From IMG/VR virus record IMGVR_UViG_3300005573_000857, positions 27,894-91,893 of that record: a stretch of 64,000 bases of DNA; one strand, written 5' to 3'. Source of the DNA: a virus. Shown piece after piece: positions 2,840 through 61,710 of the stretch. Under the pieces are notes generated by a model. It searched no databases, was not told the DNA's origin, and worked only from the letters and a program-made list of their open reading frames with translations. Position 1 is the first letter of the stretch, and every line of letters starts with the position of its first letter. The position numbers and the translations under genes were made by a program.

Positions 2840-3084
2840 AGATTAGAATTAAGAAAGGAAGTATTGTTTTTGAGGCCCCCAAAGCCGACTTGATGTCAGT
2901 TAATTCTACGTGGGACGGTATCGTTTTTTCGTTTAGGGGTGGTATTGATTTAGTTTATACTAACGCGGATTTTCCTAATACGTCAAAAGACTTGATCGTG
3001 AATAGCTGCAACTCTTTTCAGAAAGCTGAGCTTACAGTAGACCTTGACAACCCATTGCATCCTGTAAAAGCTTCTATTTCGTGA
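2836..3084 (+). CDS. Hypothetical protein (start moved to MKIRIKKG)
   Basis: AGGAGG directly upstream of ATG 2836; coupled to the previous stop. Confidence 0.75.
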   Translation: MKIRIKKGSIVFEAPKADLMSVNSTWDGIVFSFRGGIDLVYTNADFPNTSKDLIVNSCNSFQKAELTVDLDNPLHPVKASIS

Positions 3085-3159
3085 CAGAAAAAAAGCACCA
3101 AAAAAAGTTAGTAATGCATATTTTACGTTGAAAAAAAATAAGAAGGAGGAAGATAGAAT

Positions 3160-4035: not shown

Positions 4036-4049
4036 AAAAAGGAGGCTAA

Positions 4050-13203: not shown

Positions 13204-13421
13204 AAAATCTAAAGAGAATTGCAGAAAGACAGTTAGTCCAAATTGGCTCATCGTGGTATGACGTCTGCCACATTGGCAGGAAACATGTAACGATAGGTGA
13301 CAAGTCCAAACCACTAAACATTCCGAAAACTATGGTCAAGAAGTACAAGACTGAGCTGATAGATTTAGAAGAGAGTGAACGAAAGGGAGGAAGCGTATGC
13401 CAAGAACTTCAGAAAACTTGA
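13200..13421 (+). CDS. Hypothetical protein
   Basis: 73 aa; coupled overlap; GGAGG RBS. Confidence 0.6.
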   Translation: MKNLKRIAERQLVQIGSSWYDVCHIGRKHVTIGDKSKPLNIPKTMVKKYKTELIDLEESERKGGSVCQELQKT

Positions 13422-14044
13422 AGTTTATGGATGACGACAATCTGCTCGACAATCTTAAACCAATTGTTGTAGAACTATACAGTAGAGTAGAAGACCTCGA
13501 AGATATAGCAGAGACGGCGGACAATAAAATAAAAGAACTTGGTAGTGAGTTGACAAATACAGTTGGAAAATTGCAAGAGCTTAAGTTCTCGCAACTAGAG
13601 AAAAGCACTCCTAAGAAAAAGATATGGACTATTAGCAGGACTTTTGCTATTCCAGTTGGCCATAGGCTTATGACTCATAAGGGAAAATGCCAGAATCTCC
13701 ACGGCCATAATCTAAAAGTGCGTGTTTGCTTAAGAGCTGAGCAGCTTAACCAGAACTGCATGGTAGTCGATTTTTCTGACTTGAAAAGAATAGCTCTAGA
13801 ATCGATACTAGATAAGCTAGATCACTCACTTCTGCTAAATAGAGAAGATCCGCTACTGCAAGAAAAGAATACTTTAAGTGAAAAGTTTAACATCGTAAAG
13901 ATAGAAGGAGAACCTACCGCCGAAACTTTGGCTGAGTTTATATATACTTTACTTAGCCAGAAACTGCCTGCAGGCATACAGATGGATTCGGTTACGGTAT
14001 GGGAAAATGACGAATCCGAAGCAACGTACAAGGAGGTCGTATGA
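13397..14044 (+). CDS. queD: 6-carboxytetrahydropterin synthase (QueD/PTPS) with N-terminal coiled-coil extension
   Basis: HRL..KCQNLHGHN, MVVDFSDLK, LDH..LN, PTAE and VWE motifs. Confidence 0.9.
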   Translation: MPRTSENLKFMDDDNLLDNLKPIVVELYSRVEDLEDIAETADNKIKELGSELTNTVGKLQELKFSQLEKSTPKKKIWTISRTFAIPVGHRLMTHKGKCQNLHGHNLKVRVCLRAEQLNQNCMVVDFSDLKRIALESILDKLDHSLLLNREDPLLQEKNTLSEKFNIVKIEGEPTAETLAEFIYTLLSQKLPAGIQMDSVTVWENDESEATYKEVV

Positions 14045-19123: not shown

Positions 19124-19459
19124 ATGAAACTTAGGAGAGGTTTTGTAACCAATAGCAGTAGTACTTCGTATGTTGTCTTTGGCTTTAAGTTGCCGAAAGA
19201 GATCTGGTTTGAAGACAATGGTCCTTACTTACTTGATAACGAAGAAAAGAAGTCTCTTGGAATTCCTGAGGAACTGCAAGCTTTTTATGACAGCGGTAGG
19301 GTTTTAGTTGGTTCGTGTTTCAAAGAATATGATTCAGAAATAGAAGTTAGTGCAAAAGATCTCTTAGCGAAGACAGAAACAATAAAAGAGTGTGCTGCTA
19401 AGTTTGGTGTAGACCTAAAAGAAGTTCTCTTGTTTGCTAAATTCCACTACGACGGTTGA
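19124..19459 (+). CDS. Hypothetical protein with N-terminal MKxRxGFVTNSSS motif
   Basis: MKLRRGFVTNSSSTSY, a recurring N-terminal motif of uncharacterised phage and bacterial proteins. Confidence 0.7.
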   Translation: MKLRRGFVTNSSSTSYVVFGFKLPKEIWFEDNGPYLLDNEEKKSLGIPEELQAFYDSGRVLVGSCFKEYDSEIEVSAKDLLAKTETIKECAAKFGVDLKEVLLFAKFHYDG

Positions 19460-20499
19460 AGAGGAAGAAACTAATGGTTAGAATTGTTAATTGGCTAGTC
19501 ACTAGAAAGTGTAATCTTCAATGCTCTTACTGCAGAATTGCTAGGAGCTACGAGTCTCCGAAAGAGTATCCGAAGATAATAGACTTCTACAAGAATGAAG
19601 TTAGCCTTGACTTTATTGTAGAAGCTCTTAGACGATTTAAAAATCATAACCCAGAATGCTTCCATATCTTCTATGGTGGCGAGCCTCTATTGAGGTTAGA
19701 TTTAAAAGATATTGTTGCTTTCTGCAATAAAGAAAGCATTAACTATACCGTTATTACGAACGGGACAGAGGAGTTAGAACCATACTTGGAAGAGCTCTTA
19801 TCCACGACGAAGTTAGCTGGTCTCACAACGTCAGTCGATCCAGTAATCTTTTCACGAGAAGAAAGTGAAGACATTCTTAAGAAAAGTTTAGCTGGGTTAG
19901 AGCGTCTCTCTAAGTATAAAGAGCAAGTTGGTGATTTGGTAGCAGAGGTTACTGTTGGCAAAGACAACTTAAAGTTTCTTCATGATCTCACGAGAGAACT
20001 TACGTCTAGAAGAATCACTAGTTCGATTACTTTTATAGACATAGCGAAAAGCCCGTACTACGATTTTTCGAACATAACGGATACTTCTGTCCTTGTCTCT
20101 AAAGAAGAAGCTCTTCCTGTCTTGAACGCTATAGATGATGACGATGATGTAGACGTCCACATGAAGCATACACTTTTACCCAAGCTATACCAAGCTCTTC
20201 CGTCTAACTTAGATTGTAAGATAGAGGAAAGCGTACATAACCTGACTATTGACAGTGACGGAACAGTGAGACTTTGCTTAAGAATTCGTGGGGTAAAGAC
20301 ACCAGAGAAGACGATTCTACAATACTTAAATAGTGACGGGTCAATTGGTGACGAACTAAAAGAAAGATTGGCAGAAGACAAGAGAAGCTACTGTAAGCTT
20401 TGCAATTGGACTTGCCCGATCATGAGTTCTCTTGTCGAATGTGGAAGTAGTGATGTAAAATATCTTATCCATTCTGAAAGGAGAGACCAATGGGTATAA
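19456..20499 (+). CDS. Radical SAM protein with C-terminal Cys cluster
   Basis: CNLQCSYC (CxxxCxxC), GGEPL and TNG; C-terminal DGTVRLC and CKLCNWTC. Confidence 0.9.
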   Translation: MKRKKLMVRIVNWLVTRKCNLQCSYCRIARSYESPKEYPKIIDFYKNEVSLDFIVEALRRFKNHNPECFHIFYGGEPLLRLDLKDIVAFCNKESINYTVITNGTEELEPYLEELLSTTKLAGLTTSVDPVIFSREESEDILKKSLAGLERLSKYKEQVGDLVAEVTVGKDNLKFLHDLTRELTSRRITSSITFIDIAKSPYYDFSNITDTSVLVSKEEALPVLNAIDDDDDVDVHMKHTLLPKLYQALPSNLDCKIEESVHNLTIDSDGTVRLCLRIRGVKTPEKTILQYLNSDGSIGDELKERLAEDKRSYCKLCNWTCPIMSSLVECGSSDVKYLIHSERRDQWV

Positions 20500-22992: not shown

Positions 22993-23204
22993 GTGTTTTC
23001 GGTCAAGAAGCAGTAGAGGAAATTAAGTCTATCGTTAAATCTTGTTTCGACGAAGTGACAAAGAGTGAGAAACAAGAAGCTATTAAGTTAATAGAAGAAA
23101 AACTTAGCAAACTTGTCGCAGACGAGGTGAGTAACTACTTTAGAAAAATTTCTACATATGTTCTATATGGGGAGATTGTCAATAAATTGGAGGAAAAAAA
23201 GTAA
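22989..23204 (+). CDS. Small helical hypothetical protein
   Basis: 71 aa; GGAGG RBS; TAATG coupling to rpoC. Confidence 0.7.
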   Translation: MSVFGQEAVEEIKSIVKSCFDEVTKSEKQEAIKLIEEKLSKLVADEVSNYFRKISTYVLYGEIVNKLEEKK

Positions 23205-25903
23205 TGCCAGAACTCTTTAACATTGACGAGTTTTGCAAAGACCTACCAGAAGTGACGAGTTCGAAAATTAAAGAAAAGGGAAAGTTTAGTCCTCACGGGC
23301 TTTTTTCTGAGCAGATATTCGGTCCAGTTACTAACTACACTTGTCAGTGCGGTAAGTACTCTGGACCTTCTTCTCCAGTTGAGAAATGCGACATTTGCGG
23401 TGTCGAAATAACCTCGTCAATTGAAAGGAGAAGAAGATTCGCCAAAATAGTTCTTCCATTAAAAGTAGTAAATCCGACATTCTACAACTTAATTGCAGTT
23501 ACAGCTGGAAGAGTGAAGAGTCTATTAGACACACTAATGAAGGACGAGAAAAGCGTATTGTACAAAGAAGGAGACGAATATGTAGTAGCTCAAACTGCAC
23601 CTCCGAATGTAAAAGTATGGGAAAGATACGAAGCTATGGAAGAACTTATTAGAGGTCTGGCTACTTACACTGTAGAGAACAGTGACCCAGACGTCCCAAT
23701 CGTTAAGTCTTGGAAATTCATAAAAGACAACATTGACAAGATGTTTATTAAGAACATTATCGTCCTTCCACCAGACTTGCGACCAATCTCGAAAGCTGGT
23801 AATGACGTGCAGAAAGCTGATCGTATAAACTGGTTTTACAACTTTATTCTGGTTAAGAAAGAGAAAATGAGAGATACTATGTTCGATGTTAACCAGAATA
23901 AAGCTCTCTTTTACGCGTACTTTAAGCAGCTACAGAAGGCTGTAAACGAGCTCTTCGACCACATAATAGAGAAGTTGTCCAAGAAAGAAGGACTAGTTAG
24001 AGGGAACATCTTGGGGAAGAGGGTAGATTTCTCTGGAAGAGCAGTGATAGTTCCAAAAGTAACTCTTAACATCGACGAGTGTGGTCTTCCGTACTTTATG
24101 CTTTTGGAAATCTACAAGATGCAGATTGCCAAGCGGCTCGTTGGAACTACCGTAAAAACTCTTAATGAAGCCATAGAGTATGTAGACGAGTGTATTCGAA
24201 TGAAGAGCAAAGACCTGCTTGACGTATGTGAAGAGGTTACTAAGCATGAAGTATGTCTGCTAAATCGTCAACCTTCTTTGCACAGACTGAGTTTAGTTGG
24301 ATTTAAAATCAAAGTCTGTCTTGGTGACGTTATTTACCTCCATCCGCTAGTCTGCTCCGGTTTTAATGCAGATTTCGATGGAGACCAGATGGCTGTTTAC
24401 ATTCCCCTTTCTCCAGAAGCAAAGCAAGAGGTTCGAGAAAAGCTGATGATTACTAAGAACTTCTCGAATCCAGCAAATGCTTCTTTGTCAACTCTTCCAA
24501 ACCAGGACGTAGTCCTTGGTATCTACGCCTTAACTACAAACTCGTTCCCGAATTTAAGAAACTTGGTAGAGTGTAAGGGCAGCTTAGTTACTGAAAGCAT
24601 GGCTATCTTTAATAAGTGCTTGCCTGATGACTACCCTTTAGTAAACAAAGTCGTAACGAAGAAAGAGTTAATCGAGATACTAACAGACATAAAAGAGAAG
24701 TACGACCCGGAAACAGTGAGAGTTGTTCTTGACGAAGTAAAGGAGAAAGGGTTCAGGTACTCTACACTTTTCGGAGCTTCATTGTCGCTTCAGTCCTGTT
24801 ATGTGCCGGACCATGAAAAAGTAAGAGACGATCTTTACTCACCAAGTGATGTAAAAGAACAGATTGCGAAAGTTTCTGGAAAAGAATCTGAAACTATCTT
24901 ACGTGAGAAATTTCCCTATGCCTACATGGTTGAGTCTGGGGCTCGTGGTAGCTGGGACCAAGTTCGTCAGATCGTCTTAACAAGAGGTTTTATTTCGAAC
25001 TTCAAAGGACAAATCTTGAAGACTCCAGTAAAGAGAAGTCTTTTGGACGGACTTACTAGAGAAGAGTTCTTCTTGTCTACTTTTGGTTGCAGAAAAGGTC
25101 TTCTTGATGTTGCACTAAACACTGGAGCATCTGGCTATTTGTCAAGGAAACTAGTGTTTACTGCTGCGAACGCTCTAGTAAGTGAAACAGTTGAAGATTG
25201 TGGTACTACTGATTTACTTGAAGTTTATGTGGACTCGACTAAGAAAGCTAAGATGCTAATTGGTCGGTACTACAAAGATGCGTCTGGTAAACTCGACAAA
25301 ATTACGAAGAAAAACTACGCACAGTTTTTGGGGAAGACTATATTTATAAGGAGCCCAATTTTCTGTCGTAGTCTAGAATTCTGCCACACTTGCTACGGAG
25401 ATCTGTATAAGACTCTGCATAGCCGCTTCGTTGGTGTTATAGCTGCACAAAGCTTAGGAGAGACGAATACTCAGCTAATATTGAGAACGTTCCATACTTC
25501 AGGAGTCGCTGTAGTAAAAGGCGAAGCCTCTCTGAAGCAGAAAGATATAGTAGCAGACTTGAGTGCAGCTTCGAAACTATTACACCAGTTAGAAGGAGTT
25601 AACTATAAAGATTTAGTGCACGATTTGTTCGAAGTCTACAATACTTCTAGAGAAATTTTCTCAGTCCACATTGAAGTTATTGTCTCTGAAATGATGTGGG
25701 CTGGAAACGTTCTTTGGAGAATGGCGAAAAATAGAGACAAGATAACTCCAACGTACCATAGTGTCCAAAGCGTTCCTGCTAGACAAAGCTGGTTACTTGG
25801 TTTCGCTTTTTCTCATCCGAAGTGGAATTTGCTTAGAGGTGTGCAGTATTCTGGTGAGTACGTTGGTCCAATTGATAAGATGCTAAGAGGCGAGAGAATC
25901 TAA
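23204..25903 (+). CDS. rpoC: DNA-directed RNA polymerase beta' subunit (compact, 899 aa)
   Basis: GLFSEQIFGP, CQC..CDIC zinc site, VLPPDLRP, LGKRVDFSGRAVI, LLNRQPSLH, catalytic FNADFDGDQM, SGYLSRKL and TQLILRTFH. Confidence 0.97.
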   Translation: MPELFNIDEFCKDLPEVTSSKIKEKGKFSPHGLFSEQIFGPVTNYTCQCGKYSGPSSPVEKCDICGVEITSSIERRRRFAKIVLPLKVVNPTFYNLIAVTAGRVKSLLDTLMKDEKSVLYKEGDEYVVAQTAPPNVKVWERYEAMEELIRGLATYTVENSDPDVPIVKSWKFIKDNIDKMFIKNIIVLPPDLRPISKAGNDVQKADRINWFYNFILVKKEKMRDTMFDVNQNKALFYAYFKQLQKAVNELFDHIIEKLSKKEGLVRGNILGKRVDFSGRAVIVPKVTLNIDECGLPYFMLLEIYKMQIAKRLVGTTVKTLNEAIEYVDECIRMKSKDLLDVCEEVTKHEVCLLNRQPSLHRLSLVGFKIKVCLGDVIYLHPLVCSGFNADFDGDQMAVYIPLSPEAKQEVREKLMITKNFSNPANASLSTLPNQDVVLGIYALTTNSFPNLRNLVECKGSLVTESMAIFNKCLPDDYPLVNKVVTKKELIEILTDIKEKYDPETVRVVLDEVKEKGFRYSTLFGASLSLQSCYVPDHEKVRDDLYSPSDVKEQIAKVSGKESETILREKFPYAYMVESGARGSWDQVRQIVLTRGFISNFKGQILKTPVKRSLLDGLTREEFFLSTFGCRKGLLDVALNTGASGYLSRKLVFTAANALVSETVEDCGTTDLLEVYVDSTKKAKMLIGRYYKDASGKLDKITKKNYAQFLGKTIFIRSPIFCRSLEFCHTCYGDLYKTLHSRFVGVIAAQSLGETNTQLILRTFHTSGVAVVKGEASLKQKDIVADLSAASKLLHQLEGVNYKDLVHDLFEVYNTSREIFSVHIEVIVSEMMWAGNVLWRMAKNRDKITPTYHSVQSVPARQSWLLGFAFSHPKWNLLRGVQYSGEYVGPIDKMLRGERI

Positions 25904-25926: not shown

Positions 25927-28900
25927 TTGAGGATAGTAAATCCGTTTTTTCATCTTAGTGATGGGGGTATCTTCGAACTTAGAGAGAAAGACTATGCGTC
26001 AATTGAGCAGACAGTGAGAGAAATGCTAAAGCCAGCTGAAGAAGCTGGTTTCGTTATAAAAGAGTTTGAGTTGAGAGACCAGAGACCGTCTGTACGAGAA
26101 CTGATGCCAACTCTAAAGAAGAATCTGGTAATAGTACTAGAAAAGAACAACTCTGTAGTGAATTTAACTACGCAAATTCCAAAGCTTGTTGACGGAAACT
26201 ATATTGTAATTTCTGGAAGGAAGAAGGTACCCCTCTTCCAGTTGTTCGATTTGCCGATTGTTACAAGAGGTAAATCAATAAAGCTACGAACAAATGTTGC
26301 AACGTTGAGTCTAACTGTAAAGGACAAAAAAGGAGAGTCTGACCCCTTTTACGTATCTCTAAATTTCATGAACAAAGACGTTCCCTTTTCTCTCGTCCTG
26401 TTTTGCTGCTACGGATTCGATAGAGTAGTGGACATGTTTGGACTAGATAAACTCACTGAACTTCCAAGTAACTCGGGTCTTCTTGGTAAGTTGGAATGCG
26501 ATTTCTTTTCGTACTACAGTGAATCGAAAGAATACACTCAAGAAGACTTTGTGCGAGAGCTTGGAAGATACTACACTTCTTACGATGCGAAAAAGAAAGG
26601 TGAAGAAGTAGTTTACGCGCTCGATCTCATTGCGAAAGTAGACGTTCCATCCTCTAGGTTCTTTACAACGGAGTCTGCTGTCAGTGAGTTATTGCAAGCT
26701 CTAAGAATTGGTCACATTGACGATACTGACTTCAGAAATAAAAGAATACGCTGTTTCGAGTACATAGTGCTGGCTAAGCTGGCAAGAGACATTTACAACC
26801 TCTGTATCGCTAGTCGTAACGCTTTGCGCCCAAAGTTTAGTACGAACTCTAAACAAGTTATCTCAGAATGTAAGACTTCGTCAATTATCCAGTACGATCA
26901 GTCACTGAATCCGATAGATGAACTGACAAAACTTAGCAGAGTTAGCTTAGCTGGTCCAGGAGCTTTTACTAAAGAAAATGTCCCAGAGTACTTAAGAGAC
27001 GTTCATCCGTCAATGTTTGGTCGGGTGTGTTCTGTGGACACACCAGAAAGAGAGAACTGTGGTGTATTGCAAAGTCTGTTGCCAAAAGTAAAGCTAACTG
27101 AGCACATGCGGTTCGACGAAGAAGTAGAAGATAAAGCCACAGTTTCGATAGCAGTCTCGATGGTTCCATTTTTAGAGCATGACGACCAAACTAGGTTGCA
27201 GATGGCTTCATCGCAAATGAGACAGGCTGTTACTCTTCTAAAAGTAGAGAAGCCCTACATTCGTTCTGGGTGCGAAGGACTGTACACAGATTATTCGTCT
27301 TTCATAAAAAGAGCTAGAAAGAATGGAGAGATCGTATATCGCGATGAGTCGTTCTGTGTGGTAGTATATGACGACAAAGATTTCGACATCTTTAAGGTCG
27401 GATTCAGGAAAACTCAGACAGAAAATATAGACTTCCTAGTTTGTAAGCATAAAGTTGGAGATAAAGTAAAAGCTGGCGATATAGTAGTTGAAAGCTTCTT
27501 CTGCACAAACGGAGAAATAAAGATAGGAAAGAATTTGTTAACGGTTTTAGCTACATGGCATGGCTTGAATTACGAAGATGCTATTCTAATTTCAGAAGAA
27601 GTTAGAGACCGAGGTGATTTTACTTCTTTACACTTTATAGACTTATCCTTCGTCCTTCCGCCGAACAAGATACTTCTGGATTTGTCAGATGATAGCAAAG
27701 GAAAAACTTATAGACCACTTCCGACTCCTTATAGCAAGATCGTTGTAAAGAGGAAGGATAAGGTCTTTGACATGCAAAGCGATAACGAAGTGCAAGAGGA
27801 AGTAATAGAAGACTATTCAGTTGTTGCTTTAGAGAAGGGTCAGAAGTATGCGGTAGTAAAGGAGATGTATGTAGATAATGATGTAGAAAAAGTTTTCGAA
27901 GAAGAACAAGTTTATAGGACTGAGAGAGACGTAAAAATCTACTCTGTAAATATCTACGCTAACAAATGGTACGATAAAGTTCGCCCATTTGACGAGTGGG
28001 TGCAAGAAACGATAAGAATGCAACAGAAAAGAGAAAGAGATTTTCACGAAAGTCTATACAAGTTTATTCCAAGGGAAAAAGTGCAGGAGTTCATTCGAGA
28101 TAATGGATTAAACAAGTTCACTTCTCAAGGAAGCTACAGAATAAACGGAGAGCTTGTTAATGGAATGTACATAGAGATTCTTGGAGTATATGAAAAGCCG
28201 ATAAACGTAGGCGACAAAATTGGAAATCGGCATGGTAATAAGGGAGTTGTAAATATTCTCCCAAAAGAAAAAATGCCGTTACTAGAAAATGGACGGCATG
28301 CCGAAGTATGTGTAAGTCCGATGTCTACTATCTCGAGAATGAACGTAGGCCAGATCTTCGAGATGCATCTAGCGATGTCTTTACAAGACCTTAAGGCTAA
28401 GCTACTGAAAATGATAGAAGATGGAAAAAGTCAAGAAGAAATGAGAAAGTATCTTCTCGACTACATAAAGATAGTAGATGCTACGAAAGATAACTGGTTC
28501 TACAATCAGTTTGAGAGTCAGTTAGGTGTAATCGACAAGAAGTTTGTAGATGACCTTACTCTAGTGCAACCCCCGTTTGAGTCCTGTTCAAGAGAACAAG
28601 TTCTAGAAGCTTGCAAGTATACGAATACTCCACTTGAGTGTTCGATTTACGATCCAATAACGGGAGAGAAAGTTCTCAACAAAGTTGGATTTGGGTACAT
28701 GTACTTCTTCAAGATGGTCCATATTGCCGAAGACAGGTTAGCTGCTAGAGGCATCGGAACGTATTCGAAAAGAACTCTACAACCTCTTGGAGGGAGAAGG
28801 AACAGAGGTGGACAAAGAGTTGGAGAAATGGAAATGTGTTGCTTTATAGCTCACGATGCTACAGAAAACTTGTACGAAACTCTCACTACAAAGTCCGATT

Positions 28901-29064
28901 CTATCGACCTCAAGAACGAATACTTAAGAACCATTCTCGGATCGGACTTCGTTAGGAGACCCGATAAGATCGACGATGTCCCAGAGGCTGTAAAACTGCT
29001 AGACTCTTATTGCTTAGTAGTCGGTGTAAAGACGAAAAGCGATAAAAAGGAGGGTAGTGAATGA
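25927..29064 (+). CDS. rpoB: DNA-directed RNA polymerase beta subunit, copy 2
   Basis: RDVHPSMFGRVCSVDTPE, PFLEHDD..R.QMASSQMRQA, GDKIGNRHGNKG, SRMNVGQ and GGQRVGEME. Confidence 0.95.
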   Translation: MRIVNPFFHLSDGGIFELREKDYASIEQTVREMLKPAEEAGFVIKEFELRDQRPSVRELMPTLKKNLVIVLEKNNSVVNLTTQIPKLVDGNYIVISGRKKVPLFQLFDLPIVTRGKSIKLRTNVATLSLTVKDKKGESDPFYVSLNFMNKDVPFSLVLFCCYGFDRVVDMFGLDKLTELPSNSGLLGKLECDFFSYYSESKEYTQEDFVRELGRYYTSYDAKKKGEEVVYALDLIAKVDVPSSRFFTTESAVSELLQALRIGHIDDTDFRNKRIRCFEYIVLAKLARDIYNLCIASRNALRPKFSTNSKQVISECKTSSIIQYDQSLNPIDELTKLSRVSLAGPGAFTKENVPEYLRDVHPSMFGRVCSVDTPERENCGVLQSLLPKVKLTEHMRFDEEVEDKATVSIAVSMVPFLEHDDQTRLQMASSQMRQAVTLLKVEKPYIRSGCEGLYTDYSSFIKRARKNGEIVYRDESFCVVVYDDKDFDIFKVGFRKTQTENIDFLVCKHKVGDKVKAGDIVVESFFCTNGEIKIGKNLLTVLATWHGLNYEDAILISEEVRDRGDFTSLHFIDLSFVLPPNKILLDLSDDSKGKTYRPLPTPYSKIVVKRKDKVFDMQSDNEVQEEVIEDYSVVALEKGQKYAVVKEMYVDNDVEKVFEEEQVYRTERDVKIYSVNIYANKWYDKVRPFDEWVQETIRMQQKRERDFHESLYKFIPREKVQEFIRDNGLNKFTSQGSYRINGELVNGMYIEILGVYEKPINVGDKIGNRHGNKGVVNILPKEKMPLLENGRHAEVCVSPMSTISRMNVGQIFEMHLAMSLQDLKAKLLKMIEDGKSQEEMRKYLLDYIKIVDATKDNWFYNQFESQLGVIDKKFVDDLTLVQPPFESCSREQVLEACKYTNTPLECSIYDPITGEKVLNKVGFGYMYFFKMVHIAEDRLAARGIGTYSKRTLQPLGGRRNRGGQRVGEMEMCCFIAHDATENLYETLTTKSDSIDLKNEYLRTILGSDFVRRPDKIDDVPEAVKLLDSYCLVVGVKTKSDKKEGSE

Positions 29065-29912
29065 CAGAATTGCCAGATATACAGCATAATCAAGAACCAG
29101 AGCACAAGTTTTACATAAATAAGGTTGGAGTGCAAAGTGTACGCTCTCCGTTTATTCTTCAGACACGATACGGTAGTTTCCACGAATTAGTGGCAAAGAT
29201 TACAATGACTACTGATTTGGCACCTAGCATAAAGGGAATAAGTATGTCCAAACTAATAAGGACATTAAAACCTTACTTAGAGAAGCCACTTAAGCATCCT
29301 CTTATAAGAGAGATTCTACAGCGCCTCCGAGTTGAAGTTGAAACTGATTCTGCAAATAGTTCTATTAGGTTTGAGTTCCAACTCCCTGTTATAAAAGTTT
29401 CACCGATAAGCAAACACACATTTCCAGAATACTACGATTGTGCTTTCGAAGGTTCTCTTGTCGGAGAAAAGTTCCGCTTCTTCCAGAAAGTAATTGTGCA
29501 GTATGCTTCTTATTGCCCGTGCTCTGCTTCGCTATGTGAACACTTAAAGCAAAATTCGAAGCTTGGTTTTCCGCACGCACAGAGGTCGTTCGCAGAAGTT
29601 CTTGTAGAAGTCATACCGCCAGAACTCCTTTGGCTAGAGGATATTATTGACCTTGTTGAAGATGCAGTTAAAACTATACCGTACCCGATTCTTCAAAGGG
29701 TCGATGAGCAAGAGTTAGCAAGGATTGCAGCCCAGAATGCGATGTTTGTAGAGGATGCTATAAGAAGAATTATCGCCAACTTAAATTCCTGTAGCAAAAT
29801 TTACGACTGGATTGTAAAATGTTGTCACGAAGAGTCAATCCATAAGCATGAGGCGATAGCAGTGGCTTGGAAAGGAATCAATGGGGGATTCGATGACAAG
29901 AAGTTTCTTTAA
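29061..29912 (+). CDS. folE2: GTP cyclohydrolase IB (FolE2)
   Basis: LPDIQ, KGISMS, CPCS, HAQRS, R.DE, FVEDAIR and ESIH.H. Confidence 0.92.
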   Translation: MTELPDIQHNQEPEHKFYINKVGVQSVRSPFILQTRYGSFHELVAKITMTTDLAPSIKGISMSKLIRTLKPYLEKPLKHPLIREILQRLRVEVETDSANSSIRFEFQLPVIKVSPISKHTFPEYYDCAFEGSLVGEKFRFFQKVIVQYASYCPCSASLCEHLKQNSKLGFPHAQRSFAEVLVEVIPPELLWLEDIIDLVEDAVKTIPYPILQRVDEQELARIAAQNAMFVEDAIRRIIANLNSCSKIYDWIVKCCHEESIHKHEAIAVAWKGINGGFDDKKFL

Positions 29913-33801: not shown

Positions 33802-34633
33802 TGAAAGAATGGCAGCTGCTGGTGTCGAAGAGTACAAAAGTGGCTGCTTTAAGTATGTAGATGACATTAGCGTTGTCTGCTATAAGAAAGTAACAACTTC
33901 AGATCAAGACAACATCCCATTCTACGCCGTTTTTACTGCTTGTAAACCGCACGAACCACTTCGTTTTGCTGGATTTGTTTCTGAGTACTACAACTTTATT
34001 GGTAATCGAGTTCTTATTAACAAGATAAAAGAGTCTGTACAAGAAACAGGAACTGTGGTTCTTAAAGAAGCTACAGCTTTTAACTCTCGAAAGACGAGCA
34101 TGATACACGAAATTGTAGTAAGTAGTGGTTCTGCACAGGAAGGAGACATTCTTCCAGAAATTGCAGTCCAGAATTCGTACGACGGAACTTGGCAAGCTAA
34201 AGTCTTGTTTGGTTTGTGTGTTGCTGGTACTAAGCTAGTTTTTAGAACGAAGCTTGGATCTTTCTCTCAAGTGCATTCTGTTGCTTCCAAAAGTCGCTTA
34301 ACAGGAGCAATTGCCTCTTATTTCGTCACTTTTAAGGAAAACATTACTGAGTTAGTGTCTCTAAATTTTAAGAACAAACTAACCGAAGACGACGTTCTAA
34401 GAACTCTCGAGTTAGTCGAAAGGATCGGTAAGAAAAAGAGACAAGTAGTGTCAGAGTACCTCGCAGAAATGTCAGGACCAGTAACTGCGTGGAATATGTT
34501 TCTGGCGATTACAAAGTTTTCTTCCACAGAGAAGAACATAAATACTAGAATTCTACTTGAGAATATAGCGGAAAGGGTTCTTGTTTTACCCCAGAAAATG
34601 CTTAACTTATGTGAGGAGGAAGAAACACAATGA
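33788..34633 (+). CDS. DUF932-like phage/plasmid protein
   Basis: GFVSEYY..I.N and IAVQNSYDGT..KVLFG; TAWNMFLAIT. Confidence 0.6.
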   Translation: MANFSERMAAAGVEEYKSGCFKYVDDISVVCYKKVTTSDQDNIPFYAVFTACKPHEPLRFAGFVSEYYNFIGNRVLINKIKESVQETGTVVLKEATAFNSRKTSMIHEIVVSSGSAQEGDILPEIAVQNSYDGTWQAKVLFGLCVAGTKLVFRTKLGSFSQVHSVASKSRLTGAIASYFVTFKENITELVSLNFKNKLTEDDVLRTLELVERIGKKKRQVVSEYLAEMSGPVTAWNMFLAITKFSSTEKNINTRILLENIAERVLVLPQKMLNLCEEEETQ

Positions 34634-34920
34634 CAATAAACGAGCTTTTGAGTCTGACGAAGATTATTAGAGAAAGAATTAACGACTTGCAGGAGCTGAA
34701 GAAGCAGGTTAGTATTAGAGAAAGATTCTACTCTCCAACTGAGAAAGTTGTTGAGCCAAGGTATGACGTTGTGGCAGTAGACAAAAAGATCCAAGAACTT
34801 CGCCTGTTCCTCTTTAGAGCAGATGCTCTCGTAAAAGCGGCAAACGCTAGAACTGAAATTTCTATCGACGTAAATATAGAAAAACTCCTAGAACCTTTGC
34901 CGGAAGCAGGAACTAGATAA
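34630..34920 (+). CDS. Small coiled-coil protein, DIP1984/DUF6847-like
   Basis: MTINELL..RERINDL...YDV..VDK.I..L...D..VK.ANA.TEI pattern. Confidence 0.55.
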   Translation: MTINELLSLTKIIRERINDLQELKKQVSIRERFYSPTEKVVEPRYDVVAVDKKIQELRLFLFRADALVKAANARTEISIDVNIEKLLEPLPEAGTR

Positions 34921-34926
34921 ACAGGT

Positions 34927-35126
34927 AAGCGAGCAAAAGAGATAGAAACGCAAGTTAGAAACTTCCTTGTCACTGGTATACACCAGAGTGGGTATTGTAA
35001 GTGGGCTTAAAACAATTTTACTATGTTGTTGATTTTAAAAGCCCACGACAGACCCACACTTTTAGTTGGTTGTTGTAACGGTTTGGAAACCACTAACTTG
35101 CTTTCTCTCTTTGCTCGCTTTTTTTT
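34927..35126 (+). ncRNA. Putative ~200-nt multibranch structured RNA ending in a U-tract
   Basis: 28-bp closing stem (34927-34958 with 35093-35120), three internal hairpins, then a T-run. Confidence 0.65.
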
Positions 35127-35129
35127 CGC

Positions 35130-36413
35130 TTAGTAACAGGCTGACAAAGAGCTTTCTAATTTCTCGATTGCTTCGTCTACTTCTTGTTCTTTTAAAATAA
35201 GTGGCGGGCAAAACCTGATTGAAGATTGGCCGCAGGGGAGAGCTAATAAGCCGTTTCGGAAGCACTTTTCGATAATAAGACTTCTTTCCGCTCCAGCTGG
35301 CTCTTTTCGAGTGCGGTCTCTTACAATTTCAATTGCAACCATTAAACCTTTTCCTCTAACATCACCAATCACTTCAAACTTCTCAGCTAGTTGCTTTAGC
35401 TTTGCAATTAGATAATTCCCAACTCTTTCGACGTTTTCGAGTAATTCTTGTACAACTTCTATTGTGGCAAGAGCAGCAGCACACGAAACTGGGTTACCAC
35501 CGAACGTGCTACCGTGAGAACCAGCACTCCAGTCAGTTACTAGCGAGTCTTTTGCTACCATAGCTCCTAGTGGAAGACCAGACGCTATTCCTTTTGCTAG
35601 TGTGAAGATATCTGGATCTACGTGGAAATGTTCACACGCAAACATTTTACCTGTTCTTCCAAACCCAGTTTGGACTTCGTCAGCTATAAATAAGATGTCA
35701 TTCTCTTTGCATAAGTTGTAGAGCTTTGGCAGATAGTCGTCAGGAGGAACTACATATCCTCCTTCTCCAAGAATTGGCTCTATAAAAACGGCTGCTACTT
35801 CTTCTGCAGGAACTGCTTTTTCTAGTACTTCTCTAATGAAAGAAAGGCATTGCATACCGCAAGAGGGGTACTCTAACTTAAAGAAACATCTATAACAATA
35901 AGGATAAGGAACGAATACTGTTGGTAAGAGACTACCATAACCTTTTTTGTTCGAGCTTTTATTTGACGTAATAGATAGAGAACCGAATGTTCGACCATGA
36001 AAAGAACCTATAAAAGAGATGAAGAAGTTCTTTCTTGTAGAAAAGCGGGCTAGCTTCATTGCTGCTTCGTTTGCTTCTGCGCCAGAATTACAAAGAAAAG
36101 CTTTTCTATCTTTAGAACCTGGAGAGAGCTGGACTAACTTTTGGCATAGGTCAATCGCTTTTTCGTAGTAGAAGTCAGCAAAACACATATGCAGGAACTT
36201 TTCTGCTTGTTCCTTTATAGCAGAGACTATTTTTGGATGACAGTGTCCGGTATTGCAAGTTGCTATACCAGAAGTGAAATCTAAATACTCTTTATTGTCT
36301 ATATCGTATATTCGAACACCGTTACCTCTACTGACAACGAGAGGATATACTCTACCATAGCAGGGAGCCACGAATTTCCAGTTTCTCTGGAGAATATCTT
36401 CTACTTTGGACAT
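35130..36413 (-). CDS. Class III PLP aminotransferase (4-aminobutyrate/acetylornithine family)
   Basis: YLDFTSGIA, NSGAEANEAA, FHGRT, EPILGEGG, DEVQTGFGRTG, LAKG and STFGGNP. Confidence 0.95.
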   Translation of the reverse strand: MSKVEDILQRNWKFVAPCYGRVYPLVVSRGNGVRIYDIDNKEYLDFTSGIATCNTGHCHPKIVSAIKEQAEKFLHMCFADFYYEKAIDLCQKLVQLSPGSKDRKAFLCNSGAEANEAAMKLARFSTRKNFFISFIGSFHGRTFGSLSITSNKSSNKKGYGSLLPTVFVPYPYCYRCFFKLEYPSCGMQCLSFIREVLEKAVPAEEVAAVFIEPILGEGGYVVPPDDYLPKLYNLCKENDILFIADEVQTGFGRTGKMFACEHFHVDPDIFTLAKGIASGLPLGAMVAKDSLVTDWSAGSHGSTFGGNPVSCAAALATIEVVQELLENVERVGNYLIAKLKQLAEKFEVIGDVRGKGLMVAIEIVRDRTRKEPAGAERSLIIEKCFRNGLLALPCGQSSIRFCPPLILKEQEVDEAIEKLESSLSACY

Positions 36414-36483
36414 TCTTCAGCCCTCCCTTCTTCATGGGCTTTCCTCTACTATTACTACCCAGATTCATGTTAAGGAGTTTCAG

Positions 36484-38214
36484 TTAAGTTTCTCCTCTAG
36501 ATCTTGTAGAACCCCTCTTCCACAGATTCCATAAGTTTTTAGCTCTCTCCGAAATAGTTTGTACTGTCGTTTTTTCAGTTGTTCCCATTTCGTCTGCATA
36601 GTACGTACCAGAGATTTTTGTCTTGATACTTTGCATAGCAGAAGAAACTTTCTCTTTTGCTGCAGAAGTTACGCTAGCTGCTTTATTTTCTAGAGACATT
36701 CGTTCTGCTATAGCTCTTTCGTAAGCTTTCTTTGACATCTCTTTTAAAGCGGTTCTCGCTTCAGAAACCTTCTCTTCCATATTCACTTCTTTCGAAGGAT
36801 CTTGCTTAGTCGTTACTTTTTCTACTGAATCGTGGGGAGGCGGTTCGTACCACTCTGCAGGATCCACTCTCTCGACTGCGTTTGTGGCTAGCTGTTCTTG
36901 TTCCTCTAACGACTGTTGTGTTTCGTCGTACGTTGGCGAAGAAACCTGACCAAAAAGCTGGCTAGCTTCTTCTCTTGTTTCTTCTTCTGTGCTAACTTGT
37001 TCCTCTGGAATTGGGTCGGCATCAGCTAGTATGTTATACGAAGCTAAGTCAGAAGGCGAGACTCTACTAGAGATTTCTACTTCTTCCTCACCGTACTTAG
37101 TTGCGGTATATGTATACTCTACTTCTAAAGTCTTCGGCGGTGACCCAGCCACACCAGCTGGAACTACATACATATTCTTAATCGAACTTTTAGAATCTAA
37201 TATACCATCTATATAGTCTTTTACATTTGGTATGTCTTCGTTTGCGACACCACTTACGAGAACGTTGTACAAGTTAGTAAAGTCTATCCGGACATCGACT
37301 ATCCAAGGTCGCTGCATCCAAGATATTCCGCCAGCAGCTTGGTCACCACCTTTTGAGACAGAAATGTTAGTTATTGCCGCAGCTTTAATATTGAACAATC
37401 CTGGGCATTTAACTTTATGTATAAATGGCCATCTGTACAAGAAGCTATCTTCTGTTGACTGGGGAACTGCCAAAAGAAGTAAAGCTGCAAGTGGCCCAAT
37501 GATTGTCCGTGCATATGTAGAGTCATCTTTTACATCTGGACACATAAGTCTAACAGTAATCGAATACACTGCACCAAAAGCACTGGATTTCCAAACATTT
37601 GGCCAGTCAACTCTGGAACCAGTTAATAGAGCTTGCCCAACTCTAGCTCCAGTTTCTAGCATTCTTGCTGCACCACGTTCTCCTCTTAGTCTTAGCTCAG
37701 CTGTTTTTAGTCCAGCCCATCTTTCTGCACTTTCTATAGCTCCTTTGGCTCTTTCCATCCACCCAGCTATGCTTTCTGCTCCAGCTCCTCTAGCTATTTC
37801 ACTCATCGCACCAATAGCAGATTGAAGGTTCTGTACGTTCGCTATATACATTAACTCTTGCATTGGTGCAGATATTACTTCAGTCATTTGTTGCAAAAAA
37901 CTTGGTGAGTAGTCATTAGTAAATGATTCTGTTGGTGTATTGTCTAATTGGAAAACGACTGGTAGAGATCGCCCTGTTGTATTTTGCTCTCCTAGTTCGA
38001 AGCCAAGAGATTGCAGCATAGTTTTATACATTCCGAAAACTGGATCTAGCCTGTAGAGAGTGATTCCTTCGCCTACAGTTGGCAAGCATGGTGTTATTTC
38101 CATTCGCGGAAGAGTTGCTTCAAATGGAACACCACTAACTCTGGCTTCCACAGGCGGTACACCTATCGGTAAAGAAATCTTCTCAACTGGGGCCTCTTTC
38201 GTTAGCTCTATCAT
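36484..38214 (-). CDS. Putative virion structural protein (tail/baseplate region)
   Basis: 576 aa, next to the tape-measure-like gene; beta-rich tube-like segment (AITNISVSKG..VDVRIDF). Confidence 0.5.
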   Translation of the reverse strand: MIELTKEAPVEKISLPIGVPPVEARVSGVPFEATLPRMEITPCLPTVGEGITLYRLDPVFGMYKTMLQSLGFELGEQNTTGRSLPVVFQLDNTPTESFTNDYSPSFLQQMTEVISAPMQELMYIANVQNLQSAIGAMSEIARGAGAESIAGWMERAKGAIESAERWAGLKTAELRLRGERGAARMLETGARVGQALLTGSRVDWPNVWKSSAFGAVYSITVRLMCPDVKDDSTYARTIIGPLAALLLLAVPQSTEDSFLYRWPFIHKVKCPGLFNIKAAAITNISVSKGGDQAAGGISWMQRPWIVDVRIDFTNLYNVLVSGVANEDIPNVKDYIDGILDSKSSIKNMYVVPAGVAGSPPKTLEVEYTYTATKYGEEEVEISSRVSPSDLASYNILADADPIPEEQVSTEEETREEASQLFGQVSSPTYDETQQSLEEQEQLATNAVERVDPAEWYEPPPHDSVEKVTTKQDPSKEVNMEEKVSEARTALKEMSKKAYERAIAERMSLENKAASVTSAAKEKVSSAMQSIKTKISGTYYADEMGTTEKTTVQTISERAKNLWNLWKRGSTRSRGET

Positions 38215-42881: not shown

Positions 42882-44636
42882 TCACTCAGTTGTCAAATCA
42901 ATATAGTCAGCAAAAGAAAAGCTAGAGTCAATATCTTTCTCTAAGTCGATAGGACCTTTCTTTATTCTAAACATGGGTTCTAGTTTCTGCAACTGGGAAC
43001 TTCCGTCATAGAATTGTAGAGTATTAATGAACGAGCCTCCCATAGCTGAGATCTGGGCTATGTTCTCTTTTACAAACTGTGCAATATCTTCGTTAGTAAA
43101 AGAAGAGAGATTCTCACTGACGTTTAAGTTTAGAACTTTATCGAGTATATTTCCTTTTTCTCCAGCCAAACTTATCGCTAGTGGCGGGTCATACTTTCTG
43201 ACGTAGAAAGCACAAGCTGTAGCTAAAGCTAAGTCGTCTCTACAACCTTCATCACCTTCTACTCTGCCGCTAGCTTTCGAGACTAAACCCACAAGTTCTA
43301 GAGCTAGTCTTCTAGACTTTACGATCTCTGGAGTTTCTGCTATATACGAATAAAGAGAATCGATCATGAGGGGTCGTGTTTTCGAGTTAGTAGAGAGACC
43401 AGTAACGACTTTATTTTCTGACCTTTTCTCTTTATATAGCATTGGAGCAAACTCGCTTCGGTCTAGTGCTTCACATACTTGGTTACCGTAAGAGTTGTTC
43501 TCAACCACCACAATACCTGAGTACTGAGCACAAGCAAGAGCTACAACTTTTGTAAAATCTGTAACTGAGCACTTACCTTGGTATTCGCAGACTTGTTCTA
43601 GTGTTACGTAGTCCCAAACAGTAATTGCAGAGTTGTCTTCCCCATGCTCACCAGCAGTGTCTACGCCAATTAAATAGTACCTTCCCTTTTCTGGCTGCTT
43701 AAACTTCCACCATTCGCCGTTAAATAGTTTAAGTACTTCAATTGGTTTACAGTCTATTGATTGTAGTTTTTCGCATATCTCTTCAGAGAAGAAAGAACCG
43801 CTCCCAGGTAAGAATACTAAGTCTAACTCCTGTTTTATAGCTTTTTCGTCATAACCGAATAGCTTTCGCTGTGTCTCATACCAAGACGGATCACTTGCCA
43901 GTTCTGGAATGTCTTTCCAGTGTATCTTAAATAACTTGAAGATGTCAGAGTTAGATAAAGCTTTCTGGTATCGAGTAAAAAACCACTTTCCAACACCTTC
44001 TGTCTTGTTCGGGGTGCTTAGCAGAACTGTTCCATAGGGTATCCCATTTTGTCTAGCGTGTTTCTGAGAAGTAGCTAAAGCTGAGACCATTCCAGTCCAT
44101 GCTTCTTCAATATGTGGCACAAAAGCTGCTTCATCAATAACTAGAAAAGTAATTGCTTTACCTCTTAGCGTTTTTTCTGGCGTTGACGGATTGACAGGTG
44201 TTGCATACACTTTAGAACCATTGCTCAAAATAAACGTTTGTTCTGTTCTTTTCTTGAACCCTGGTGTCATCCATTTTGGAAGCTTATCTAACATGGACAT
44301 TATATTTCTAGCGAAACTAGTTGCTTCCGGTCCATCTTTAGAAATGATTCCGACGACGACATTGTCGAAAAAAGTGGTAAGCCAAGTGATATAAGCCTGG
44401 ACAATCGTAGAAATTCCAATTTGCCTAGACTTAAGAACTAATACAGTTTTCTCTTGCTCGATCGTTTTTATTAGCTTTAACTGTTCCTTGTAGGGATTTA
44501 AGTAAACGTCGCCACCAGGAAGCTCGATTACAATGTAGTTTCTGCAGAAGTATTCGAAGTCTGACTTACATTTTATATACTCTTGAACTAGTTTTTCTCT
44601 TTCTTCTTTCGTCATGTTTTGTGCACTGCTCTCCAT
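42882..44636 (-). CDS. terL: Terminase large subunit (T4 gp17-like)
   Basis: LKSRQIGIST, LVIDEAAF, LLSTPN; RNase H-like IGVDTA, VENNSYG and DDLALA. Confidence 0.93.
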   Translation of the reverse strand: MESSAQNMTKEEREKLVQEYIKCKSDFEYFCRNYIVIELPGGDVYLNPYKEQLKLIKTIEQEKTVLVLKSRQIGISTIVQAYITWLTTFFDNVVVGIISKDGPEATSFARNIMSMLDKLPKWMTPGFKKRTEQTFILSNGSKVYATPVNPSTPEKTLRGKAITFLVIDEAAFVPHIEEAWTGMVSALATSQKHARQNGIPYGTVLLSTPNKTEGVGKWFFTRYQKALSNSDIFKLFKIHWKDIPELASDPSWYETQRKLFGYDEKAIKQELDLVFLPGSGSFFSEEICEKLQSIDCKPIEVLKLFNGEWWKFKQPEKGRYYLIGVDTAGEHGEDNSAITVWDYVTLEQVCEYQGKCSVTDFTKVVALACAQYSGIVVVENNSYGNQVCEALDRSEFAPMLYKEKRSENKVVTGLSTNSKTRPLMIDSLYSYIAETPEIVKSRRLALELVGLVSKASGRVEGDEGCRDDLALATACAFYVRKYDPPLAISLAGEKGNILDKVLNLNVSENLSSFTNEDIAQFVKENIAQISAMGGSFINTLQFYDGSSQLQKLEPMFRIKKGPIDLEKDIDSSFSFADYIDLTTE

Positions 44637-44920: not shown

Positions 44921-46162
44921 GCGACCTTCTGGGGGACTAAAGCCCCCAGATTCCTGTTACTTTTGTTGGGTCTAACAGAGCGCTAGAGTCACTAGTAGCG
45001 CATTGAGATTTCTTATAGAACTTCTCAATGTTTCTTGACCCGTTTAGATCAGTATCAAGTTGAATCAAACAATCATTACAAACAAATCTTTCTTGTTGTG
45101 GTCTAGAAGTATTTCTACTTCCGCAACTTGAACAAGTTTTAGACGTATATGCTGGATTGATTTTTACAACTAGAATTCCCTGATCTAAACATTTATACTC
45201 CAAGAAGTTTTGGAACATCGAGTAAGGAAAACTGTTAATGATATAATTCAACATTTTTCCTTTAGAAGTCCCAAGTTTTCTTGAAGCTGACCTTCTCAAA
45301 TGTCTCAGATCTTCTAGGACTAGAACGTCTACTCCTTGTTGAAGAAGTTCTTTAGAAATTTGAGAAGTCAATTTGTGCAAATAGTCTTTTGAATAGTTTG
45401 CCAAATTTCGAAGTTTCTGGTTATTCTTTTTACGCTCAAGTTTTCTATGAGCAAGTTGTTTGATATGCTTAAAGATATTATTTGAAAGAACAACTCGTTT
45501 GTAGTTAACATCAAGACCAACTACTTTTGGAATTTGTTTTGGTTGTGGATCTGGTTTTTCTATTTCTATAGAAAGTCTTAAATACAACTTATTGTTACTA
45601 GACCTTTTGTAAATTTGAACTAGTTTAACTTTTCCTTTTGAAAGATCTAGATGTTTTCCAAACAAAGGAAAATACTTTCTAAATAGTTTTAGCCAGATTT
45701 TGGCGTATTTAGTTGGTTTAGTTGTATTAGAAACTTGTTGGCCTTGATCCATGAAAATACTTGCTTTTATTGGTTTCTTTGGAGCTTTCTTGTAATTCCA
45801 AGGAGCATATAAACTTATGAAGTTTTGAAGACATTTAGAATTTATTTGAGGAAATTGTTGTCTGCAAAGTCGATACAAAGACTTTTGATCGTTCCAACTT
45901 GACTTACACAAGTAGAAAACAAATTCTGACAATTGCTGAATCTGTTGTAAAGTATTTTCTAGAAACTCAAGTTTCTGTTTATTTCCAGAAATTCTACAAG
46001 TATAGGATTTTAATGTTTTCATACCCGTTTTTGACTTTCAATTGTATTTTTAGTTATATTTGTTTGTTCTAAATTTAAAACAAATCAGAATCAAGAACAG
46101 TTCTAAAATGATCTCAATTCATCCGGATGACTAAAGTCACCGGCTTTCTTGAGAAAGGAGAT
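44921..46162 (-). mobile_element. Non-autonomous IS200/IS605-family element (tnpB only)
   Basis: On the - strand, left end TTAC|...AAAG-CCGGTGAC-TTTA-GTCATCCGG; right end GAAT-CTGGGGG-CTTTAGT-CCCCCAG..TCGC. Interior is more AT-rich; no tnpA. Confidence 0.8.
44937..46022 (-). CDS. tnpB: RNA-guided endonuclease TnpB
   Basis: RuvC I VVGLDVN, RuvC II VLEDL, YTSKTCSSCG/CNDC zinc finger, RuvC III DTDLNGSRNI. Confidence 0.93.
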   Translation of the reverse strand: MKTLKSYTCRISGNKQKLEFLENTLQQIQQLSEFVFYLCKSSWNDQKSLYRLCRQQFPQINSKCLQNFISLYAPWNYKKAPKKPIKASIFMDQGQQVSNTTKPTKYAKIWLKLFRKYFPLFGKHLDLSKGKVKLVQIYKRSSNNKLYLRLSIEIEKPDPQPKQIPKVVGLDVNYKRVVLSNNIFKHIKQLAHRKLERKKNNQKLRNLANYSKDYLHKLTSQISKELLQQGVDVLVLEDLRHLRRSASRKLGTSKGKMLNYIINSFPYSMFQNFLEYKCLDQGILVVKINPAYTSKTCSSCGSRNTSRPQQERFVCNDCLIQLDTDLNGSRNIEKFYKKSQCATSDSSALLDPTKVTGIWGL

Positions 46163-61623: not shown

Positions 61624-61710
61624 TTTACTTCCTCCAAGATGCTCTAAGGTTTTTAATTTGTTCTCACTCAATATATATTCCTTTCCGTGAGTAAGAAAGG
61701 AGGTGATAAA

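Follow-up and report, generated by a model that had tools for sequence, protein, structure and literature searches.

The DNA examined here is a 64,000-nucleotide (nt) stretch, referred to below as the window, of the viral IMG/VR record IMGVR_UViG_3300005573_000857 (bases 27894-91893 of 91.9 kb; CheckV completeness 29%). An open reading frame (ORF) encoding a protein of 96 amino acids (aa) is followed on its own strand by an element which is a conserved structured RNA tied to this small gene of an uncultured phage. The two occur together in phage neighbourhoods that are unrelated in other respects, and the pair is uncatalogued. On balance we favour the view that the two constitute a two-part phage module, in which the gene for an approximately 95-aa helical-hairpin protein is directly followed, on its own strand, by the sequence of a structured non-coding RNA (about 150-250 nt), and that protein and RNA probably form a ribonucleoprotein (RNP).

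The initial annotation of this region had described a highly structured RNA of about 200 nt, closed by a 28-bp stem which starts 6 nt past the stop codon. The closing helix (P1) was found as described: segments 34927-34942 and 34945-34958 pair with 35093-35120, forming 28 bp and leaving 4 unpaired nt on the 5' arm. The enclosed arms CTGGT/ACCAG, GTGGGT/ACCCAC (P2) and GTGGGCT/AGCCCAC (P3; 35001-35007 and 35040-35046, in full GTGGGCT(T)/(A)AGCCCAC) and the terminal run of 8 T were all located. A further hairpin, GGTTT/AAACC, did not stand: the letters are present (35080-35091), but the loop would have only 2 nt, the hairpin is absent from the minimum-energy fold and it is not conserved. When the approximately 210 nt between 34921 and 35132 were compared with dinucleotide shuffles (n = 200), the minimum free energy of the + strand was -74.6 kcal/mol versus -46.7 +/- 3.8 kcal/mol for the shuffled sequences (z = -7.4), and none of the 200 shuffles was equally good. 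The value for the opposite strand was -70.6 kcal/mol (z = -6.45).

Relatives of the gene were obtained in several ways. A word-indexed search for the 96-aa protein gave four relatives, a scan of JGI metagenome contigs gave 24 phage loci with homologues of 41-58% identity, and a full profile search gave 269 cluster representatives at E<=1e-3, nearly all of them 87-105 aa long. The window and the 24 metagenomic loci correspond to 23 distinct loci (L008/L009 and L019/L020 are each counted once), and the DNA directly after the stop codon of the gene was compared at each of them. The same architecture follows the stop codon in 22 of the 23 distinct loci. It consists of P1, a two-tier central hairpin (P2/P3) and single-stranded UUGUURN tracts, in the order: purine-rich 5' arm of P1, zero to two small hairpins of differing sequence, P2, P3, apical loop, linker, pyrimidine-rich 3' arm of P1. 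The fold behind homologous genes, which the initial annotation had proposed to look for, thus exists, and the idea of a module made of a protein and a noncoding RNA is supported to the extent that a conserved gene and a folded RNA occur as a pair at these loci.

The helices are conserved as helices, not as sequences. P1 was present in all 22 elements with 8-23 bp (by the count of the script used) and unrelated sequences, its base reading GUGG...CCAC(A/G)U in 14 of them. Helix sequences differ from locus to locus, as illustrated by P3, which is GGGG/CCCC, GAGG/CCTC, GTAGA/TCTAC, GCGAGC/GCTCGC or GGTGAA/TTCACC. Conserved letters are found in three single-stranded U/G-rich stretches, located in the junction between P2 and P3 (J2/3), in the 3' half of the apical loop and in the 3' linker. 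The apical loop (18-53 nt) is A-rich in its 5' half and reads (U)UGUUGUUnAUUGUUA in its 3' half, and the single-stranded linker carries the second stretch, UGUUG..UUGUUGUUA. In the window the first tract, ATGTTGTTGATTTTA, is the most conserved sequence of the element. A T-run of at least four after P1 was found in only 7 of the 22 elements. At L010 (404-460) and L018 (1019-1075) an extra 5' hairpin lies between the stop codon and the main P1. These two loci also have an outer helix, in which GTGGA just past the stop pairs with the TCCAC tail, so that the conserved CCAC tail can belong to an extended P1.

The stability of the elements was tested against shuffled sequences. The median z value for whole elements was -3.96 (n = 22), with 15 of the 22 at or below -2.9. 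The P1 duplex was better than duplexes with shuffled 3' arms in 22/22 elements (median z -3.35), a comparison to be read with the caveat that shuffled purine/pyrimidine arms still pair well. No pairs were predicted by RNAalifold from a MAFFT alignment of all 22 elements, because the helices are out of register in a plain MAFFT alignment; in a subgroup of short elements the same program recovered P1 as a helix of 16 bp with many G-U pairs. The central domain was also described by a covariance model (R1), which stays near a sequence alignment; this model found exactly one copy in each of 19 sources, none in L002, L005 and L024, and nothing more in the 64-kb window. In the R1 alignment 59.2% of the pairing cells were occupied by pairs versus 47.2% after shuffling, and the covariation score was 0.335 versus 0.193. 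None of 500 shuffles attained either value, and the structure in register was better than all slid versions. Comparison of four closely related locus pairs, for which the alignment can be trusted, showed that most changes in the stems preserve pairing, and included 14 double compensatory changes.

The + strand was the more stable one in all 23 elements folded (mean -57.3 versus -43.2 kcal/mol, Wilcoxon p = 2.7e-5), and it is far richer in G-U pairs, which would be A-C mismatches on the complement. The sense-strand advantage together with the G-U pairs is in favour of an RNA with the polarity of the gene, or of a single DNA or RNA strand at the least, and argues against a double-stranded DNA site. 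Distances between TTG/TTA triplets in the apical loops and linkers showed peaks at 3, 7, 10 and 13 nt, the 7-nt distance being observed 38 times against 6.2 expected. This periodicity implies that the tracts are composed of UUGUURN units, two to four per tract. Pseudoknots were sought among the apical loop, the linker and the 5' junction (J5), and none was better than in shuffled sequences (median z 0.0, -0.2 and -0.55 for the loop-linker, loop-J5 and linker-J5 duplexes, respectively). Pairing of the loop motif with the start of the gene itself, seen by eye at 10 of 11 positions in the window, was considered and dropped, since third codon positions vary freely and the TINEL block of the protein is often not at the start.

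The association with the gene was examined by tblastn searches with 15 neighbouring window proteins and by all-against-all comparison of the ORFs. The gene for the 96-aa protein was the only one common to the loci. The loci are phage DNA, containing genes for tail sheath, tape measure, portal, terminase or sliding clamp. On its upstream side the small gene closely adjoins the gene before it, with no conserved promoter; the gene after the element is variable (tail tube, flap endonuclease, a tRNA, unknowns). Among the loci with a callable downstream ORF of at least 90 aa the next gene is convergent only in the window and in L023, and co-directional in the others. This arrangement shows that the element is not merely a bidirectional terminator, the alternative raised in the initial annotation. 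Each locus has one element and none was found elsewhere in the 91.9-kb record. In L012 there was one more, weak match (4082-4152, - strand, E 0.004-0.2); it is located within a glycosyltransferase ORF, in antisense orientation, and was put down to chance. Similarly, the core pattern TTGTTGTTRRTTRTTAYC gave 113 matches in IMG/VR, none of them with the gene or the whole element; these were regarded as chance matches, and the reverse test, from RNA to protein, was uninformative. In L021 a tRNA-Pro gene (2047-2123) begins directly after the element, and in L022 a tRNA-Met gene (321-396) lies upstream of the small gene; no tRNA gene was found near the gene or the element in the window or in the other loci.

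On sequence grounds the 96-aa ORF belongs to a family of genuine genes, because every copy is preceded by a strong ribosome-binding site (RBS) and residues are kept while third codon positions vary. In the window the RBS is AGGAGG, and the start codon overlaps the stop codon of the upstream gene (ATGA). At normal thresholds Pfam and PHROGs gave no match to the protein. Among GenBank phages neither the DNA of 34000-36500 nor, in tblastn searches, the 96-aa protein and protein P0139 had a match, and protein and profile searches of IMG/VR gave no relatives. An AlphaFold model built from a 26-row alignment (mean confidence, pLDDT, 77) consists of a helix (residues 3-25), a beta-hairpin and a second helix (47-70). 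Nine columns of the protein family are conserved as basic, and the conserved TINEL block is often away from the gene start.

The initial annotation had called the protein DIP1984-like by eye. DIP1984/DUF6847 proteins (NF038048, PF20935) occur in bacteria and phages and are about 140-170 aa long. When members of the small-protein family were scanned singly at a lax threshold, 15/26 matched the NCBIfam model DIP1984_fam (NF038048) and 14/26 the Pfam model DUF6847 (PF20935). In every match residues 2-76 were aligned with the C-terminal half of the model (positions about 62-148). All scores were under the curated whole-protein cut-offs (70 bits for NF038048, 27 bits for PF20935), the best being P0125 with 25.2 bits versus 27; the window protein scored 15.2 bits (E 0.018) and 14.9 bits (E 0.027). 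The full-length DIP1984 architecture of about 140-150 positions is not present in the family. The nearest entries in the ESM Atlas were viral clusters of 93-100 aa, in one of which 20% of the members carry PF20935, and a bacterial 'DIP1984 family protein' cluster was a structural neighbour (template modelling score 0.74 by query, 0.44 by target). Sequence and fold searches of the PDB turned up no solved DIP1984 structure, and no functional paper on DIP1984/DUF6847 was found in a literature search. Thus, the by-eye call was correct as to remote similarity, but not as to membership: judged by the profile alignments, the 96-aa protein is remotely related, at scores under the thresholds, to the C-terminal half of DIP1984/DUF6847. 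Like the proteins of that family it is helical; it differs from them in length, having only about 95 aa, roughly half of a DIP1984 protein.

The element was also compared with known RNAs. The Rfam search recommended in the initial annotation identified no family, either at E<=1 over 10 kb of the window and 15 relatives or at E<=10 on the element alone. For RAGATH-27 (RF03100) and RAGATH-19 (RF03096) the gathering score was not reached and no match was found at E<=10; a literature search found no paper on these two motifs, and phage T5 (AY543070) had no match to PF20935, to protein profile A2 or to RF03100. The suggestion of a toxin-antitoxin-like pair found no support. In a type III (ToxIN-like) system a tandem array of antitoxin RNA repeats precedes the gene of an endoribonuclease toxin; in the phage pair the RNA lies downstream of the gene and has no long tandem array, and no nuclease or toxin family was found for the 96-aa protein in Pfam, PHROGs or NCBIfam. 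Nor does the element fit an intrinsic terminator, a compact G+C-rich hairpin with a U-run behind it, present on both strands if bidirectional: the terminator scan was blank, the U-run is on the + strand only and the stem encloses more than 130 nt.

Partial likenesses exist to several characterized systems. TRAP on the trp leader and HutP on hut mRNA are oligomeric proteins which read evenly spaced triplets, one unit per subunit. The phage element resembles their targets in having short repeated units at fixed spacing in single-stranded RNA. The differences are that TRAP and HutP are beta-rich rings acting on 5' leaders to control termination, whereas the phage protein is a helical hairpin, the RNA is 3' of the gene and binding is only proposed. 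RNase III cuts long flank duplexes and so releases stable RNAs from the rRNA operon and from phage early transcripts. P1 is similar in being a duplex of the 5' and 3' flanks that would enclose a stable RNA within a polycistronic transcript, but it is interrupted by bulges, with 8-23 bp per segment, and cleavage at P1 is only proposed. Y RNAs bound by Ro60/Rsr are, like the element, closed by a long stem formed by their ends. In L005 a gene for a TROVE-domain (Ro60-like) protein (2378-3895, + strand) lies 1.1 kb upstream of the small gene and is followed by a 244-nt gap (3896-4138). A Y RNA/Ro60 particle was rejected, as there was no match to Y RNA in Rfam and TROVE was found only in L005 and nowhere in the 91.9-kb record; the constant partner in the phage module is the small helical protein, not Ro. 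GcvB is likewise a structured RNA displaying conserved unpaired G/U-rich stretches. GcvB, about 200 nt long, is encoded in the chromosome, depends on Hfq and has a promoter and a terminator of its own, and it is without the closing helix, the 7-nt periodicity and the dedicated protein gene that are seen in the phage element. Most GcvB targets are served by its G/U-rich R1 seed (PMC9299463), and C/A-rich target elements are ascribed in that article to Sharma et al. 2007.

If gene and RNA act together, the following sequence of events can be envisaged. The RNA would be transcribed together with the gene, as suggested by the distance of only 6 nt between the stop codon and P1 and the absence of a conserved promoter. 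In this phage the transcript would end at P1 and the eight U residues, the 8-T run being the likely 3' end of the + strand transcript. At loci without a U-run the RNA would probably be excised at the P1 duplex by an RNase III-like activity; a general role as terminator is unlikely because the U-run is kept in so few relatives. Multiple copies of the small protein would then bind the evenly spaced UUGUURN units to form a ribonucleoprotein. This mechanism is plausible, and we favour it because the small protein is the only constant neighbour and even spacing is typical of sites for oligomeric proteins. In a more specific version, which we put forward only tentatively, several copies of the 95-aa protein would sit on the 7-nt U/G-rich units of a closed RNA scaffold, and this ribonucleoprotein would be the minimal branch of a much wider partnership, in phages and bacteria, between DIP1984/DUF6847-type proteins and structured RNAs.

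A number of observations weigh against an RNP module. Some members are thermodynamically weak (z -0.6 for L002, -0.1 for L014 and about -1.7 for L006, L008, L013 and L019). Column-wise covariation is modest, which we attribute to helices changing their position with respect to the sequence anchors. The protein has almost no net charge (family medians: net charge 0, isoelectric point 6.3), and fold searches (Foldseek on PDB, and VIA as a wide search and a second look) returned generic helical hairpins only (Z <=7.8). The homologue in L015 has no element. In L019/L020 there are two gene copies in tandem; the element lies between them, and behind the second copy just a remnant of it is left. Co-location could stem from shared transcription rather than shared function. 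Finally, the public runs containing the stretch, which are DNA runs from hot-spring and sediment metagenomes, include no RNA run. The duplicated segment itself (1604-2501 of L019, identical in L020) encodes, in its second gene copy, a protein 48% identical to that of the window; this copy is followed only by the first ~25 nt of a 5' arm of P1.

Two alternatives accept a conserved structure but assign it another role, and we consider both of them unlikely. The element might act in cis in the 3' untranslated region, with no free RNA: it could terminate the transcript, direct its processing, stabilise it or serve as an operator for autoregulation by the protein. Its start 6 nt past the stop codon, always on the strand of the gene, the position of the gene in operons without a promoter of its own, the eight T after P1 in the window and the capacity of a long P1 duplex to block 3' exonucleases would all suit such a role. 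However, a stabiliser or terminator requires neither a conserved two-tier hairpin nor invariant U/G heptads, and 150-250 nt far exceeds the usual size; moreover, the T-run is restricted to 7/22 elements and a simple scan for terminators is blank here. Alternatively, the element might be a trans-acting base-pairing RNA whose G/U tracts serve as seeds, in the manner of R1 of GcvB, or as a sponge for C/A-rich sites near the RBS of host or phage mRNAs, the small protein being a chaperone or a mere neighbour. The most conserved letters are indeed unpaired U/G-rich runs in loop and linker, as would be expected of seeds, and GcvB provides a precedent for the use of a G/U-rich seed with most targets (PMC9299463). 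In the phage the sequence AACAAA occurs at 1.29 per kb in the regions from -45 to +6 and at 0.35 per kb in gene bodies, a difference resting on 7 sites only, but upstream of phage genes there is no enrichment of the full complement AACAACA/ACAACAA (1 and 0 sites). The search for C/A-rich targets covered the genes of the phage itself. Strict 7-nt spacing and strict linkage to one gene are atypical of seed regions, and the 3' U-run is again confined to seven of the elements.

Far less probable is a DNA-level site such as a replication origin or terminus, or a site for recombination or packaging. This explanation draws on the location of the element at the switch of gene orientation, where the GC skew peaks at ~35 kb and the + block meets the - block, and on the TTGTTG repeats, which can be read as iterons. 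The elements of the relatives are situated inside co-directional gene runs and the element is tied to one small gene, not to a genome position; in addition, the preference for the sense strand (23/23), whose G-U pairs would become A-C mismatches in the complement, speaks for a single-stranded form. We attach next to no probability to the view that the inverted repeat arose by chance or is an ordinary bidirectional terminator separating convergent blocks, a view which the convergent genes around the element and the good folding of both strands in the window could at first sight suggest. Covarying helices are kept at 22/23 loci, a convergent next gene was seen only in the window and L023, and the - strand has no U-run after the hairpin.

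If gene and RNA do work together, they constitute a compact protein-RNA system of about 500 nt in total, kept by large phages and unstudied. This would assign a function to part of the DUF6847/DIP1984 family, add one more class to the few structured RNAs known from phages and offer a simple case of a small helical protein reading evenly spaced RNA units. On the more modest reading, the element represents a new family of conserved phage RNAs whose gene partner is constant, useful for annotating 'intergenic' phage DNA. The features of gene and element are listed in Table 1.

Table 1. Coordinates of the small-protein gene and of the parts of the RNA element in the window
Feature	Position	Strand	Basis
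Gene of the 96-aa protein, a helical hairpin (helix, beta-hairpin, helix)	34630..34920	+	ORF, RBS, profile family, AlphaFold (AF2) model
P1 5' arm (purine-rich), closing helix	34927..34958	+	pairs with 35093-35120, 28 bp
Small optional hairpin CTGGT-ATAC-ACCAG between P1 and P2	34973..34986	+	fold
P2 5' arm GTGGGT	34988..34993	+	pairs with 35052-35057; covaries across loci
J2/3 junction ATTGTAA with nearly invariant UUG	34994..35000	+	T8 and T9 nearly invariant in alignment A5
P3 5' arm GTGGGCT	35001..35007	+	pairs with 35040-35046
Apical loop	35008..35039	+	A-rich 5' half, then first U/G-rich heptad tract
First U/G-rich heptad tract ATGTTGTTGATTTTA	35023-35037	+	invariant T-G-T-T columns in alignment A3; 7-nt TTG/TTA spacing
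P3 3' arm AGCCCAC	35040..35046	+	pairs with 35001-35007
P2 3' arm ACCCAC	35052..35057	+	pairs with 34988-34993
3' linker	35058..35092	+	per-locus linkers, periodicity
Second U/G-rich tract AGTTGGTTGTTGTAAC in the 3' linker	35064-35079	+	TGTTG..TTGTTGTTA block conserved in alignment A3
P1 3' arm (pyrimidine-rich)	35093..35120	+	pairs with 34927-34958
Run of 8 T after P1	35119..35126	+	sequence

The source record is a fragment of a jumbo phage. Besides genes for the large terminase, type II topoisomerase, SbcCD, a CCA-adding enzyme, 7-deazaguanine enzymes and a tnpB element, the window contains genes for subunits of a multisubunit RNA polymerase. Two of these are beta-like, one being cut by the window start and the other encoding 1045 aa, and one is beta-prime-like (899 aa); they are located at 2-2209, 23204-25903 and 25927-29064 (+ strand). 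In the complete pair beta-prime precedes beta, indicating that the phage carries its own multisubunit RNA polymerase genes. Genes for PTPS/QueD (13397-14044), a radical SAM enzyme (19456-20499) and FolE2 GTP cyclohydrolase (29061-29912), all on the + strand, suggest synthesis of 7-deazaguanine by the phage. The CCA-adding enzyme (61687-63033, + strand) has a PolyA_pol head, tRNA_NucTran2_2 and HD domains; despite its presence, ARAGORN found zero tRNA genes in the 64-kb window. A 361-aa TnpB-like ORF with a Cas12f1-like TNB domain (44937-46022, - strand, E 4.9e-22) adjoins the large terminase gene (42882-44636) and is located within a stretch of 31% G+C (low-GC region 45000-46000); its appearance is that of an insertion consisting of tnpB alone.

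Approximately 35 kb of + strand genes converge at the element with approximately 29 kb of - strand genes. The 96-aa ORF is the last gene of the + block, and the first of the - block encodes a class-III aminotransferase (35130-36413, E 2.8e-128), whose end is 3 nt from the T-run of the element. The cumulative GC skew has its maximum at about 35000, where gene orientation switches. The coincidence of skew peak and element is probably specific to this genome, as the elements of the relatives are not at such a switch.

Strain variants of the element were seen in public DNA contigs. Among them are the change C35043T, which keeps the P3 pair by converting G-C to G-U, and insertions or deletions in the apical loop. 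The assembly of run X3 divides into two short alternative contigs precisely over the central hairpin (34969-35082), and four metagenome contigs (L003, L004, L008 and L011) end 189-291 nt past the stop codon. It seems that strains vary especially often at the element or that assemblers have difficulty with it.

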